Below, piece after piece: positions 40,791 to 48,306 of a stretch of 64,000 nucleotides of DNA (positions are counted from its first letter, which is position 1; every line of letters begins with the position of its first letter). This stretch comes from Bacillota bacterium (GTDB taxonomy: Bacteria > Bacillota > Sulfobacillia > JAJZYS01 > JAJZLH01). The notes under the pieces are model-generated. The model was given only the letters and a program-made list of their open reading frames with translations, had not been told where the DNA came from and made no database searches. The stretch is taken from assembly GCA_021850485.1 (NCBI GenBank), contig JAJZLY010000005.1, positions 12,686 through 76,685 on the forward strand, written 5' to 3'. Both the position numbers and the translations under genes were made by a program.

Positions 40791-42760
<1,970 letters not shown>

Positions 42761-44102: not shown

Positions 44103-44540
44103 ATGGGCCGACGCAGCGGATCGATTGGCCTGGGTCTCGTCGTCACTGCCATCGGCGTGTATCTAGCGGCACAAGCCCTGGGATTTCCGGTGCAACCGTT
44201 TGGCCGCGTCGTAGGCATCTACTGGCCGCTTTTATTCACGCTGTGGGGCGTGGCGGAGCTGGTCGAAAAGCGCGGGGGGCTGTTTGTTCCGCTGGGTGCG
44301 ATCTTGTTTGGCCTATTGCTCACCGCCACCAACAGCGGGCTGTTCCCGCTTTCCAGCGGGTCGGCGTGGCAACTTCTGGCGGCTGCTTTCGTGGTGGCGC
44401 TTGGCCTGGAGATGACGGTTGGCAAGAAGATCTTCCGGCACCGGCGGTGGGACGGACGGCGCGGCCCCAAGACGACCATGCACTGGATGTGGGACGACCG
44501 GGAGCCACCGGACATCGAGAAACCACCTCAGGACGTTTGA
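44103..44540 (+). CDS. Membrane protein (4 TM; LiaF-N-terminal-like), hypothetical
   Basis: RBS aggagg lies 9 nt before ATG 44103. Hydrophobic helices followed by a charged C-terminus. Confidence 0.5.
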   Translation: MGRRSGSIGLGLVVTAIGVYLAAQALGFPVQPFGRVVGIYWPLLFTLWGVAELVEKRGGLFVPLGAILFGLLLTATNSGLFPLSSGSAWQLLAAAFVVALGLEMTVGKKIFRHRRWDGRRGPKTTMHWMWDDREPPDIEKPPQDV

Positions 44541-44580
44541 CACCCTGCGGGACCTCTCATAGACTAGGGAAGCCCGTTTC

Positions 44581-44656
44581 GGGGCCGTAGCTCAGTTGGG
44601 AGAGCGCCTGAATGGCATTCAGGAGGTCAGGGGTTCAACTCCCCTCGGCTCCACCA
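44581..44656 (+). tRNA. tRNA-Ala (anticodon GGC)
   Basis: Cloverleaf with G3:U70 identity pair. Anticodon loop aUGGCAu. T-loop ggttcaact. CCA encoded. Confidence 0.9.
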
Positions 44657-44664
44657 CTTGAAAC

Positions 44665-44703
44665 GAAGATCCCGCAAGGATTTGCGGGATCTTCTCTTTT
44701 CTG
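44665..44703 (+). terminator. Rho-independent terminator after tRNA-Ala
   Basis: gaagatcccgcaa-ggat-ttgcgggatcttc followed by tctttt. Confidence 0.6.
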
Positions 44704-44750
44704 CTGGAGAGCTAAAATGTTCGATCTGCTACCATTTTGCTACCATCCGC

Positions 44751-45779
44751 CTATTTTGGACTCCCGGCTCCGGTGCGACCCGATGGCATCTCATGGGAAC
44801 CCATGACGTCGGCAAAGAGCGATGCGGCCGTCTTGTCGGCGACCTTCTTCTGACGGCCAGGCTGATCGTGCATGTAAACGCTCATGGTCGTCGTCACTTT
44901 GGCGTGCCCAAGGCGGTTCTGGACGGCAGTCGTGTCGCCTTCTGAATCTTGGATCAGGAATGTCCCAACCATATGGCGGAGGTCGTGCAGGCGGATGTGC
45001 CGCAGGCCAGCCAGCTCTAATTGCCGAGTGAAGAGGCGGTGCAGGGTGCGTGGGCTGAGCGGCGTACCAACTCGCGACGGGAACACCAGGCCGTGCTCCT
45101 GCCACAATGTTCCGGCCCGCTCCCGGTCTTGGTCAAGACGCTGGCGCTGGTCCTGGAGGATGCGTCGGTCGGCGTCTGTCATCTCGATAGGGCGCGCCCC
45201 ACGGGGCTCCTTGGTCACCCGCTCGACGACACCACGACCTGGCCGGTACGGGCGCTGGACCCGCACATTGAGATAGCCGTGCTCCCAATCAATGTCGATC
45301 CAGCGCAGGCCGATCAGTTCGCCACGGTGCATGCCCGTTGAAAGGCTCAGTGCAAAGAGTCGGTGCGCAGAGAGGGAGTTAAGAAACGTGCGAGCCTCTT
45401 CCCGGGTATGGATGATGTGTTCGCGTGGCGTGTATTTGGGTTTCGTAACGCGGTCCAGCGGGTTGCGGGCGATCAGGTCGCCGACGGACGGCTGCCCGGA
45501 ACGCAATGTTGAGGATGTTGTGGCAGTGGGTAGGGGCGGAGCCGTGCAAGGAACCGTAGAGCTTCTCGACCTGGTCCGGTCGGAGACTGGCCAGCCGTTC
45601 TCCCCCGAGGAGTGGAACGATCTGGTTTCGAATGAGTCGGCGATACTTGGCGGTTGTATGCGGAGCCAGCGGGATACGGTGAATTCGAGCGGTCGTCGCA
45701 ATCGGGGCGCATTACATAACTGGCCATCACCTACAATGATCTCAATGACCGAGGGGAGGGGCTCGCTGTGAAGACACAC
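44751..45779 (-). CDS. Tyrosine recombinase/phage integrase, C-terminal catalytic domain intact, N-terminal region apparently degenerate
   Basis: Catalytic residues in ...HDLRHMVGTFLIQ... and ...SVYMHD (R..HxxR..Y). The first ~100 codons of the ORF lack core-binding-domain features. The ORF overlaps the divergent HicB-like gene. Confidence 0.75.
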   Translation of the reverse strand: MCLHSEPLPSVIEIIVGDGQLCNAPRLRRPLEFTVSRWLRIQPPSIADSFETRSFHSSGENGWPVSDRTRSRSSTVPCTAPPLPTATTSSTLRSGQPSVGDLIARNPLDRVTKPKYTPREHIIHTREEARTFLNSLSAHRLFALSLSTGMHRGELIGLRWIDIDWEHGYLNVRVQRPYRPGRGVVERVTKEPRGARPIEMTDADRRILQDQRQRLDQDRERAGTLWQEHGLVFPSRVGTPLSPRTLHRLFTRQLELAGLRHIRLHDLRHMVGTFLIQDSEGDTTAVQNRLGHAKVTTTMSVYMHDQPGRQKKVADKTAASLFADVMGSHEMPSGRTGAGSPK

Positions 45780-46001
45780 TCATACCGCGTGATGCTCGCC
45801 TGGGATGCCGACGACGAGATGTGGAACGTGTCGGCGCCCGCCATTCCCGGCTGCTTCACGTTTGGAGTCACCGTTGAAGAGGCGATCGAGAACGCTCGCG
45901 AGGCGATCTTGGTCAATGTCGAGGACATGGCGGAGCGAGGAGAGGTCATCCCTGCGGAGGACACCCGCATCGAGATGGTGACGGTCGAGGCTAAGGCTTG
46001 A
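45768..46001 (+). CDS. HicB-like (UPF0150) antitoxin-family protein, orphan
   Basis: YRVMLAWDADDEMWNVSAPAIPGCFTFGVTVEEAIENAREAI matches the HicB N-domain fold family. No adjacent HicA ORF found. Confidence 0.55.
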   Translation: MKTHSYRVMLAWDADDEMWNVSAPAIPGCFTFGVTVEEAIENAREAILVNVEDMAERGEVIPAEDTRIEMVTVEAKA

Positions 46002-46173
46002 CCGGACGTGCCGTGGTTGATGCTCTCCAGCGCCAAAGTTGCAAGGTGTCGCGGCAACGTTGCAGTCGTGTCCGGCGGGAATGGCCGGACGGGCGCGAGG
46101 TGACGGTGCCTGCTGGCAAGGAGTCGCAGCGTCCCTGCCGAACCAGTCTTGAGAAGTGAAGGGAGGGTTGTCG

Positions 46174-46632
46174 ATGGATCAGGAGATGAAGGCATACCTG
46201 GACGCAATGCAACAGGGCATCATCAAGCAAATGGTTGACTTGAACACGGAAACGCGCACTGAATCCCGTGACCATGGGGAGCGACTGAACGGGCAGACCC
46301 GTGAGTACATAGAGAAACTGCACACGCAGGCCCATGACCATGCGGAGCAACTGAACGCGCAGACCCGTGAGTACGTAGAGAAACTGCACACGCAGGCCCA
46401 TGACCATGCGGAGCAACTGAGCGCGCAGACCCGTGAGTACGTAGAGAAACTGCACACGCAGGCCCATGACCATGCGGAGCAACTGAACGCGCAGACCCGC
46501 ATCCTGATCGAAGCGGTTCACGACGACATTCGGCTCGTTGCCGAGGGCGTCGTGATGTTCAACGAGAAGCTCGACCGGATCGCCGGCGACCACGAGCAGC
46601 GTATCCAGCGCCTTGAACGAGGGGCGTTGTAA
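46174..46632 (+). CDS. Coiled-coil protein with three 20-aa tandem repeats (TREYVEKLHTQAHDHAEQLNAQ)
   Basis: RBS aagggagg before ATG 46174. 60-nt DNA repeats span about 46293-46472. Confidence 0.55.
   Translation: MDQEMKAYLDAMQQGIIKQMVDLNTETRTESRDHGERLNGQTREYIEKLHTQAHDHAEQLNAQTREYVEKLHTQAHDHAEQLSAQTREYVEKLHTQAHDHAEQLNAQTRILIEAVHDDIRLVAEGVVMFNEKLDRIAGDHEQRIQRLERGAL
46263..46500. repeat. 60-bp direct tandem repeat, about 3.5 copies, intragenic
   Basis: The unit cagacccgtgagtacgtagagaaactgcacacgcaggcccatgaccatgcggagcaactgaacgcg is repeated with 1-2 substitutions. Flanking half-units are degenerate. Confidence 0.8.
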
Positions 46633-46779
46633 CCATTCCCGTCACCGTGGCAAGTCGTCCGCGCTCGGCTTAACAAAGCCGGGCGTTCTTGATCATCGGC
46701 GAAGTGGGTACCTGCCGCTCGGCCGGCCGCATGTTGATCTGCAACAGGACTGCGGCTTCTGATTTACGAACCCCTGCCC

Positions 46780-47979
46780 ATGCCAAGCATCACGCCACGG
46801 CCCCGCAAGAACGACCGGCCAGACCGGCCGACCAGGCGGCTTGTCACCTGGGACCTGCCGCCGGGTCCTGGTGGCAAGCGTCGGTGCACAACCGAGACGG
46901 TGCGAGGCAACAAGCGAGACGCCGAGCAGAGATCGACCGGGCTGCCGGCAGATACGTTTCACCATCTAAGCAAACCGTTGCACAGTACATGGAGCAGTGG
47001 CTTGCAACGGTGAGTCAGCACATTCGACCAGCCACCTACTACAGCTACGAAATGCAGGTTCGGGTGCATATCCTTCCTCACTTGGGGGCAGGAGCCCCTT
47101 GTCAACCTGGCAGCCCAATCGCTCCAGGCATGGTTGGTTACGTTGTCTCAGCCGCAGGGGAACGGCACGACCCTCTCGCCCCGCTCCGTCGCATACGTTT
47201 GCTCGGTGCTTGGCATCGCACTCGGAGAGGCAGTCCGGCTGGAGCTCCTGCCTGCGAACCCTGTGAGCCGGATACGACCGCCCAAGCAGAACCCGAAGAA
47301 GGTGGAGTCCCTCACCTTCGAGCAGGAACAGGCAATTGACGAAGTCGGGCGGGACATGAGGCTGGGCGTCTTGTTCTCGGTCCTGCGGAAGACGGGGCTT
47401 CGCATCGGCGAGGCGATCGGTCTCCGGTGGGAGGATGTGGACCTTGAGAACGCCACCCTTTCGGTCCATCGCACCATGTCGGAGATCAACGGACGAATGA
47501 TCGAAGGACCGCCCAAGACCAAGGCCGGACGACGGGAGATAGCGCTAGCCCCACAGACGGTCGAGATGCTCCGCTGCCAGAGGTAAGCGCAGGAAGTGGA
47601 GCGATGGGTAAACAGCGCGGACTGGAACCAACAGAGACTGGTATTCCCCTCTACTACGGGCACGGTGCTATTCCGCCACAATGTCCGACGTGCCTGGCTG
47701 GACCTCATTGCGAGAGATGGACTGCCGGTCTACGGTCTCCATGCCTTGCGCCACACCTGTGCCAGCCTCACGCTCCAAGCCGGAATCGGACTGGCCGAGA
47801 TCGCAGCCAAGTTAGGCGACGAGAACACCGCCTTCGGGGCCAGAGCCTACGCCCATGTCCTGCAAGCCACCAAACGGCAGGCAGAGGACCGCTTTGGGCG
47901 CTTCCTCACCGGAAGACCATCGGACTGGATTGTTGTCGAAATATTGGCAAACCGCCCGCCGACCCCTGCTATCACATGA
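46780..47979 (+). pseudogene. Phage-type integrase pseudogene (two frameshifts plus an in-frame TAA)
   Basis: The N-terminal segment (..GKRRCTTETVRGNKRDAEQ) is in frame 1. The core-binding segment (..SPSKQTVAQYMEQWLATV...HILPHLG) is in frame 0, then back in frame 1 (LVNLAAQSLQAWL...). A TAA at 47584-47586 precedes the catalytic domain (LHALRHTCAS...YAHV). Confidence 0.75.
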
Positions 47980-48097
47980 CATAACGTGTGACCTAGTGAT
48001 CGTTCCGTAATGGCCTGAAAGCACCATATAGAAAGGGTTTGTGCCTATCCTTCAAGCCTTGTTGATAGTCATGAAAGGTCACGCAATTTGGACATGG

Positions 48098-48147
48098 CCT
48101 GGATGGCATTGAGGAGGTCGGGGGCTCAACTCCGCTCGGCTCCACCA
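48098..48147 (+). repeat. Partial tRNA-Ala 3' half (displaced att-site copy, putative attR)
   Basis: cctggatggcattgaggaggtcgggggctcaactccgctcggctccacca compared with tRNA positions 44607-44656 shows 5 mismatches. The native-looking terminator follows at 48154-48184. Confidence 0.55.
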
Positions 48148-48306
48148 GACTGAACCCGCTTCCCGTAAGGGAAAGCGGGTTTTGGCTGAAGGCCGATGTC
48201 CGTCGAAAGTAGGGTACATCCTGACCACGAGGCAACCTCGGCTGCGCCGGGGCTTCAGGGTATTCTTGTGGCTTGGTGCCGAACCAAGTGCCCGACGCGC
48301 CGGTGC

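Follow-up and report, generated by a model that had tools for sequence, protein, structure and literature searches.

Features at the tRNA-Ala(GGC) locus

The window, which is the whole 64,000-nt stretch of contig JAJZLY010000005.1 that was analyzed, contained a single tRNA gene according to ARAGORN, namely tRNA-Ala(GGC) at 44581-44656 on the plus strand. A displaced copy of the 3' part of this gene was located ~3.5 kb downstream on the same strand. The features in and around this interval are listed below, with the two integrases termed INT1 and INT2 and the corresponding types of integrative element termed E1 and E2.

44537-44565, plus strand: promoter-like site (TTGACA-17-TAGACT) on the host side of the tRNA, kept upstream of the tRNA in the relatives L002, L093, and L099
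44581-44656, plus strand: working tRNA-Ala(GGC), which with the downstream arm makes up attL; its positions 31-76 (44611-44656) are the 46-nt block of E1-type elements
44665-44704, plus strand: terminator hairpin (44665-44694) with T-run, following the working tRNA; the homologous hairpin of L084 separates the 46-nt block from the integrase
44727-44745, plus strand: two direct TGCTACCA repeats, presumed arm-type integrase sites of E1
44754-45675, minus strand: INT1 pseudogene, E1-type tyrosine integrase (the minus-strand ORF spans 44751-45779)
45676-45767, no strand: junction DNA between the truncated INT1 and HicB, without a match to any compared locus
45768-46001, plus strand: intact HicB-like antitoxin gene, 77 aa, N-terminal domain only (PF15919, E 2.4e-14; phrog_497)
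45998-46110, plus strand: HicA toxin remnant (PF07927, E 0.003, below the cut-off; approximately profile positions 1-38 of 58)
46174-46632, plus strand: coiled-coil protein gene, 152 aa from the ATG at 46174, a conserved neighbor of INT2-type integrases
46780-47979, plus strand: INT2 pseudogene, E2-type tyrosine integrase (frameshifts near 46920-46932 and near 47086; TAA at 47584-47586)
47978-47985, plus strand: GACATAAC motif at the INT2 stop codon, invariant in 4/4 INT2-type loci, possibly an arm-type site
48084-48147, plus strand: displaced tRNA-Ala 3' part (attR)
48153-48184, plus strand: hairpin terminator of the ancestral tRNA gene, after the displaced copy, with the hairpin at 48153-48183

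The initial annotation had reported a copy of the tRNA-Ala 3' half with five mismatches, and this was borne out: 48098-48147 matched tRNA positions 27-76 at 45/50, against best scores of 25-27/50 in shuffled island sequence and 25/50 elsewhere in the island. The strong match began exactly at the anticodon stem and ended at CCA, and a weaker match extended leftward to 48084, for a total of 64 nt at 84% identity. A third (middle) att copy was searched for in the island on both strands, using the full 50-mer and sub-blocks, and chance-level matches alone were found. The sequence of the working tRNA was 100% identical in nine relatives (L002, L088, and L093-L099), and therefore the five mismatches represent changes in the displaced copy or element-derived parts of it. 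They do not serve as a sign, as had been proposed, that the working 3' half is derived from the element. The hairpin after the displaced copy was identical at 28/30 nt to the hairpin located directly 3' of the same tRNA sequence in L002, the nearest relative, which supports the earlier placement of the original tRNA terminator at the far end of the island. This hairpin was also matched in L088, where it lies between the tRNA and an E1-type integrase, and is therefore not an exclusive host marker.

INT1 and INT2 were 28% identical to each other. The interval contained two PF00589 matches (E 5e-24 and 5e-17), both accompanied by a SAM-like N-terminal domain, and the catalytic motifs (R..HxxR..Y) were present in both integrases. 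Neither resembled an active tyrosine recombinase, which has an uninterrupted frame, an arm-binding N-terminus, and core-binding and catalytic domains; both were pseudogenes. INT1 retained a full PF00589 catalytic domain (E 7e-22), as the initial annotation had stated. The "non-integrase" N-terminus of that description, on the other hand, proved to be a frameshifted core-binding domain: in the numbering of the intact homologue P0122 (386 aa), residues 142-386 lay in the ORF frame, residues 77-141 lay in another frame (frameshift near 45479-45482), and codons 1-76 were deleted. A third-frame similarity of the peptide EFTVSRWLRI to the start of the core-binding domain was also considered and was dropped because DNA homology to the intact relatives (L084 and L088) ends earlier, at 45675. 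For INT2, the two frameshifts and the in-frame TAA, which replaces Gln, were mapped as previously claimed. L001, an independent assembly of the same species (99.9% identical, with 4 SNPs, a 9-nt indel, and one repeat unit separating it from the window), carried identical lesions; they are therefore not sequencing errors. HicB and the coiled-coil gene were the only intact reading frames in the island. The GC content of the island was 0.606 versus 0.646, making it the lowest 3.4-kb stretch of the window. The departure from the flanks was seen in total GC only; the GC3 of the island genes (0.72-0.80) was not distinguishable from that of flanking genes (0.71-0.85).

Relatives of the two integrase types

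INT1-type integrases were found beside a tRNA gene and reading towards it. The closest intact homologue of INT1, P0122 (75% identity), likewise adjoins this tRNA-Ala in L088, with unchanged orientation, and P0125 (52%) adjoins tRNA-Val together with MobL and ParM. P0123 (71%) in L084 adjoins a bare 46-nt tRNA piece with TTGCTACCA pairs on both sides. This piece consists of tRNA positions 31-76, exactly matched and without the tRNA 5' half, and from its sequence it looks like an attP. An excisionase-like gene lies on the core side opposite the integrase, and a ParM-like gene is nearby. The hairpin, arm repeats, and integrase of L084 are collinear with the stretch after the working tRNA in the window, with 85% identity over 150 nt of the terminator region. 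This collinearity indicates that the 3' part of the working tRNA and its terminator travel with the element, and the terminator after the working tRNA is, as judged by this homology, one that E1 would have brought. The earlier view that the working tRNA uses an element-derived 3' half is thereby retained, on this basis and not on that of the mismatches. The paired TGCTACCA motif flanks the L084 core on either side and, in L088, adjoins the integrase, and its repeats in the window are putative arm-type binding sites of the E1 integrase. The 46-nt att block had no match when scanned against IMG/VR, which gives no evidence for E1 as a phage.

INT2-type integrases were located at the far end of islands, with a displaced tRNA 3' fragment (Cys, Leu, Ala) 108-257 nt further downstream. 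The closest intact homologues of INT2 are P0001, P0003, and P0006 (62-67% identity), and the fragments that follow them start at the anticodon stem (Cys, Leu, and other). Each of L089, L090 (tRNA-Cys), and L092 (tRNA-Leu) carries a fragment of a different tRNA after the integrase, with the whole anticodon stem-loop contained in the fragments of L090 and L092. Either a HicB-HicA pair or a coiled-coil gene lies upstream of INT2-type homologues; such pairs precede the integrase in L089 and L094-L096. Homology of the window to the E2-type locus L090 begins at 46111.

The HicB-like gene of the window scored 54 bits against a Pfam cut-off of 27, in agreement with its earlier identification. Its description as an orphan was not upheld, since the next ORF is a HicA remnant (18.1 bits against a cut-off of 27). 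This ORF spans 45998-46159, and past 46110 it consists of DNA that lies upstream of the coiled-coil gene. As in type II HicAB modules, a gene for the HicB N-terminal domain is followed by a HicA-like ORF with overlapping stop and start; unlike in those modules, the toxin is cut and falls below the Pfam cut-off, and HicB is without the C-terminal DNA-binding domain. The locus therefore does not hold a complete HicAB toxin-antitoxin system, as HicB passes and HicA is incomplete. No significant tblastn match was obtained between the window HicB/HicA and the HicB-HicA pairs of L089 and L094, so this fragment is not assignable to E2 by homology; it may stem from E1, E2, or a third element.

Among this group of Sulfobacillus-related uncultured Bacillota, the tRNA-Ala(GGC) gene that follows rsfS and a gene for a LiaF-like membrane protein is a hot spot where integration has recurred, with three or more integrase lineages using it, and more distant relatives carried other insertions at this site. 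The expected arrangement of tRNA-Ala followed directly by the GNAT gene was not found in any related contig. In L002, from MAG YP3.bin27 (GCA_021827745.1), the tRNA is directly followed by the attR-type hairpin, and the contig stops 70 nt past the tRNA. As a clean empty site L002 is only a candidate: its hairpin matches, but its last 34 nt matched the window no better than chance (score 10, null mean 11.6). JGI metagenome contigs yielded no relatives when scanned with the LiaF-like protein and nothing when scanned with the exact 76-nt tRNA.

Origin of the island

The comparisons above show the anatomy of the locus, its lesions, and how each integrase type is typically arranged. We consider it very likely that two different integrative elements, both targeting tRNA-Ala(GGC), left 44657-48147 as a composite remnant that is no longer mobile. 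Such a decayed island with two insertions had been proposed from the window itself, and it is supported by the finding that, in other loci, either integrase type is present without the other and has the position relative to its att site that it has in the window. Tandem origin is argued from this architecture of the homologues and not from a surviving middle att.

Both elements would have targeted the part of the tRNA gene from the anticodon loop to the 3' end, probably with crossover in the anticodon loop. E2, with its integrase at the far end and reading towards attR, would have interrupted the tRNA gene and moved its host 3' part, together with the host terminator, to 48098-48184. E1, whose relatives are plasmid-like (ParM, MobL, and an excisionase-like gene), would then have entered the regenerated tRNA and supplied its present 3' 46 nt, the present terminator, and the two arm repeats. 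We infer that E2 preceded E1, an order that the arrangement itself does not tell. Later deletions presumably removed the bulk of E1 and E2 along with the intervening att copy, so that the left end of E1 (44657-45675) and the right end of E2 (46111-48147) are left, with HicB and the cut HicA (45676-46110) in the middle. The homology breakpoints at 45675 and 46111, together with the truncation of INT1 at codon 77 and of HicA at approximately two-thirds of its length, point to internal deletion junctions. Point mutations would have broken both integrases afterwards. Today, the locus would have no mobile-element activity, with the host promoter driving the tRNA and the E1-derived terminator stopping transcription.

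Decay of one element that carried both integrases and had inserted a single time, without tandem accretion, would account for the presence of only one displaced fragment, the missing middle att copy, and the shortness of the island. This reading is improbable, as in seven other loci either integrase type is found by itself, with an att arrangement of its own, and none of these loci has both. Moreover, the putative attP of L084 has the excisionase-like gene, not an INT2-type integrase, opposite the integrase, and the cuts in INT1 and HicA mark internal deletion junctions.

It is very improbable that 48098-48147 is a separate decayed tRNA pseudogene, produced by duplication of the gene and without any relation to the integrases. 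The similarity in the 14 nt further 5' (9/14), reaching into the D-arm region, would fit such a pseudogene, but the remaining tRNA 5' part is not recognizable (~50% identity over 26 nt), and the strong match has the extent known from anticodon-centered att sites. Furthermore, 3/3 INT2-type homologues examined carry a tRNA 3' fragment at the same place, each from a different tRNA, and the locus has one tRNA-Ala(GGC), with no tandem pair, in 9/9 relatives. A still working mobile element, with frameshifts that are assembly errors or programmed, is just as hard to credit: the INT1 catalytic domain does lie in an open frame with all catalytic residues, but INT1 is without its 76 N-terminal codons, INT2 has a nonsense codon and two frameshifts, the lesions recur in L001, and the arms at the two ends come from different element types.

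Comparison with known islands and the coiled-coil gene

The composite remnant is a further instance of a textbook phenomenon and an ordinary genomic scar at a tRNA gene. Att sites in tRNA genes are reportedly divided into classes (Williams 2002, Nucleic Acids Res 30:866). The locus belongs to the anticodon-centered attP class (site A), with the L084 block covering positions 31-76 and the window repeat starting from position 27 (anticodon stem 5' arm); this class accounts for 2083/3919 islands in Islander (Hudson, Lau and Williams 2015, PMC4383910). Restoration of the target gene by the island, a displaced fragment, and tandem arrays have been described across thousands of islands, including 125 cases of tandem arrays at one tRNA (PMC4383910). 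Islander requires an intact tRNA with a cognate end fragment in the same orientation, and a PF00589 integrase that is not of the Xer or integron type. The window contained an intact tRNA and a correctly sided, same-strand 3' fragment that reaches the CCA end, with two tyrosine integrases in the interval, both pseudogenes. The formal definition of a tandem array, under which every member brings an integrase and a tRNA fragment of its own (PMC4383910), does not apply, as only one fragment was found and the best other match in the island was 25/50. Like Islander islands, the window has a tyrosine integrase between the intact tRNA and the same-orientation displaced 3' fragment, a gene restored by the island, and an identity block that spans the anticodon stem-loop and everything from there to the 3' end. 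Unlike them, it is a scar with two integrase pseudogenes, no surviving middle att, and nearly all of the cargo deleted. The elements of L082-L084, which carry a ParM-like ALP, a MobL relaxase, and an HTH_17 excisionase-like gene, have integrases that are 52-75% identical to INT1 and that share its position and orientation at the tRNA, and the arm repeats and terminator are common to L084 and the window; unlike in these elements, none of their cargo is left in the window.

The locus matters little beyond its annotation, in which the two integrases should be recorded as pseudogenes, the displaced tRNA part as a fragment, and HicA as a remnant, and not as live genes. The att-site anatomy of the two integrase lineages (core block and arm repeats) could aid island-mapping tools.

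The coiled-coil protein gene, previously described as containing tandem repeats, indeed consisted in part of 66-nt tandem units (22 aa) at 46254-46499, with three repeats more than the 86-aa version of L090, which is without these extra repeats; the gene of L001 has one repeat fewer than that of the window. Repeat number differs among close strains, with proteins of 86, 108, 130, and 152 aa, and the family has 13 strong homologues. Outside the repeats, the protein was almost identical to the L090 copy (e.g., 42/44 of the last residues), and the start of the gene showed 91% DNA identity to L090, while the adjoining integrases are ~60% identical and have different target tRNAs. PHROGs contained no family for this protein, and Pfam gave sub-threshold apolipoprotein-like repeats only. 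The protein might act as a partner of INT2-type integrases, or its gene might be one that the host has kept under selection, a suggestion that we regard as speculative and rather unlikely. The coiled-coil gene has remained intact, and its integrase, INT2, is dead.

Structure of the island and reality of its lesions

The region between the working tRNA-Ala(GGC) and a displaced copy of its 3' part (44657-48147) is most probably the scar of two tRNA-targeting elements that were joined by deletion and inactivated by mutation. This agrees in essence with the initial annotation, which proposed a decayed island from two insertions: each integrase (INT1 and INT2, both of the tyrosine type) fits an element type of its own (E1 and E2, respectively), and both are broken. 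Structures of this type have been described thoroughly, Islander having cataloged 3919 islands along with 125 tandem arrays (PMC4383910), and the present island is a new instance of a known structure, in an uncultured Sulfobacillus-related bacterium. Its features are as follows.

Immediately upstream of the tRNA: promoter-like TTGACA-17-TAGACT
44581-44656, plus strand: tRNA-Ala(GGC) (ARAGORN), sole tRNA in the window
44665-44694: hairpin and T-run after the working tRNA
44751-45779, minus strand: INT1 ORF, PF00589 catalytic domain complete
45768-46001: HicB gene, intact
46174-46632: coiled-coil gene, most likely starting at ATG 46174 to give 152 aa; repeats at 46254-46499
46780-47979: INT2, frameshifted, with TAA at 47584-47586
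47978-47985: GACATAAC
48098-48147: displaced tRNA 3' copy, 45/50 match to tRNA positions 27-76
48153-48183: hairpin and T-run after the displaced copy

Alignment bore out the proposed copy of the tRNA 3' half with five mismatches, its 45/50 match being far above the top 50-mer match in shuffled island sequence (25-27/50); weaker similarity reached 48084 (64 nt at 84%). A 50-mer search for a third copy across the island yielded no other match above 25/50, so the copy number is exactly two. The suggested check of composition gave a divided result: total GC was lower in the island than in the window (0.606 vs. 0.646) and the lowest among all 3.4-kb stretches, but GC3 was not distinctive.

The lesions are real, since they recur unchanged in L001 (ENA ERZ27237452), which was assembled independently from the same species. 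Differences between L001 and the window over 20.5 kb came to four SNPs, a single 66-nt repeat unit, and an obg indel of 9 nt; inside the island, only the number of 66-nt repeats differed. The obg indel (GGCGGGCGC, window 41145-41153) is in-frame and affects the glycine-rich part of the Obg N-terminus.

Two integrases and their element types

INT1 and INT2 share 28% identity. Aligned with P0122 (386 aa), the intact integrase closest to it, the INT1 ORF covers residues 142-386 in frame (80% identical over this part), whereas the counterpart of residues 77-141 sits in a different frame and residues 1-76 are missing. DNA homology with related loci ends at 45675, and INT1 is thus truncated and frameshifted; the catalytic domain was correctly described as intact, but the unusual N-terminus reflects this damage. 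At the related locus L088, P0122 (75% identical to INT1) adjoins an identical tRNA-Ala(GGC) and points towards it, as in the window. At locus L084, P0123 (71% identical to INT1) adjoins no more of the tRNA than its last 46 nt (positions 31-76, 100% identical), followed by a hairpin of the same kind as that at 44665-44694. This block lies within L084 1984-2290, with paired TTGCTACCA(G/T)TTTGCTACCA repeats on both flanks, an HTH_17 excisionase-like gene across the core from the integrase, and a ParM-like gene past the integrase. The arrangement has the apparent attP layout of an INT1-type element and suggests an integrative plasmid-like element, either free or at a tandem junction. From the E1 layout, the window retains the hairpin and one TTGCTACCA repeat pair (44727 and 44738). 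A more distant integrase, P0125 (52% identical to INT1), neighbors tRNA-Val and is accompanied by MobL and ParM-like cargo.

INT2 was expected to carry two frameshifts and an in-frame stop, and alignment to P0001 located all three: residues 2-50 are in one frame, 53-108 in a second, and 108-388 again in the first, and the TAA at 47584-47586 stands where a Gln codon is expected. The closest intact relatives are integrases of 388-409 aa that NCBI names as from Sulfobacillus sp. MAGs. The motif LGDENTAF (window 47810-47830), compared with LGH in most tyrosine integrases, is a family trait and not decay, because intact P0001 has the same Asp. In three compared islands (L089, L090/L091, and L092), an INT2-type integrase is the final gene, preceded by a coiled-coil gene in L090 and L092 and by a HicB-HicA pair in L089, and a tRNA 3' fragment from the anticodon stem on lies 108-257 nt beyond it (Cys(GCA) in L090, Leu(TAA) in L092). 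In all INT2-type integrases examined, an invariant GACATAAC sits at the stop codon or just past it, once per locus (L089 4675, L090 11229, L092 11221). The window order of coiled-coil gene, INT2, GACATAAC, 118 nt, and tRNA-Ala fragment is therefore that of a normal E2-type right end. A second ACATAAC occurs at 45714, within the junction DNA that precedes HicB; the 64-kb window has just these two.

An ORF at 45998-46159 overlaps the HicB stop codon and matches the HicA profile below the cut-off, at positions 1-38 of 58 only; DNA from 46111 on is homologous to the region upstream of the L090 coiled-coil gene, which together indicate that HicA was cut by a junction. The noted tandem repeats of the coiled-coil protein are 66-nt (22-aa) units whose number differs among near-identical strains and relatives, giving proteins of 86 aa (L090), 108 aa (P0243, 99% identical), 130 aa (L001), and 152 aa (window, equal to the L090 protein plus three repeats). 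This protein family is a small one, with 13 representatives out of 1.84 billion reaching E<=1e-10; both its start (MD.E.KAYLDA) and its end (LIE..H.D..LVAEGV...N.KLDR) are conserved. This conserved gene of variable repeat number beside INT2-type integrases is the only mildly unusual item of the island.

Origin of the tRNA 3' half and terminator

L002 (MAG 'Bacillota bacterium YP3.bin27') is the genome collection's nearest relative, with identities of 82% in Obg and approximately 81% in DNA. It contains an identical tRNA and, right after it, a hairpin agreeing with window 48153-48182 at 28/30; its contig stops 70 nt past the tRNA, the final 34 nt being unrelated to the window, so the tRNA-GNAT adjacency expected in the initial annotation keeps the status of a prediction. 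The hairpin after the displaced copy was thus probably rightly regarded as the original tRNA terminator, although the same host-type hairpin is found in L088 (2640-2682), between the tRNA and the intact INT1-type integrase. The hairpin behind the working tRNA, on the other hand, matches L084 element DNA. In the standard model, an element brings the present tRNA 3' part and terminator and displaces the host originals (PMC4383910). The two hairpin matches support this model here, with the present 3' part and terminator probably supplied by the element. Since the L088 hairpin is unlike that of L084 and the window E1, related elements would differ in their terminators, or att regions would have been exchanged.

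The five mismatches had also been taken as a sign of an element-derived working half, a use that does not hold. L002, L088, and L093-L099 all match the 76-nt tRNA at 100%, even though one species among them has a LiaF-like protein of just 65% identity. The differences are therefore derived in the displaced copy, with one possible exception, the mismatch in the anticodon-stem 5' arm, which may have come from E2. As read from the sequence, several mismatches break the cloverleaf: the anticodon stem and the T stem each contain a G·G, and T54 has become C. They show decay of the displaced copy and nothing on the origin of the working half, for which the evidence is the collinearity with L084.

tRNA-Ala(GGC) in related genomes

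tRNA-Ala(GGC) is an integration hot spot in a more distant species too. What comes after the CCA end in L093-L099 depends on the strain: three sequences unrelated to one another occur, and each has arm-like repeat pairs of its own (TTACGCCAA pairs; GGTGTTA pairs). In L093, the tRNA is followed by another integrase, on the minus strand. In L094-L096, an IS256-family transposase is present together with a HicB-HicA pair, and a transposase fragment truncates an INT2-type integrase at residue 115. Many short contigs break off within or just past the tRNA. Four short contigs from relatives (L100-L103; Logan, ENA) terminate inside it, at positions 26, 27, 30, and 46, as expected from assembly-graph branching at the start of the repeated 3' att block.
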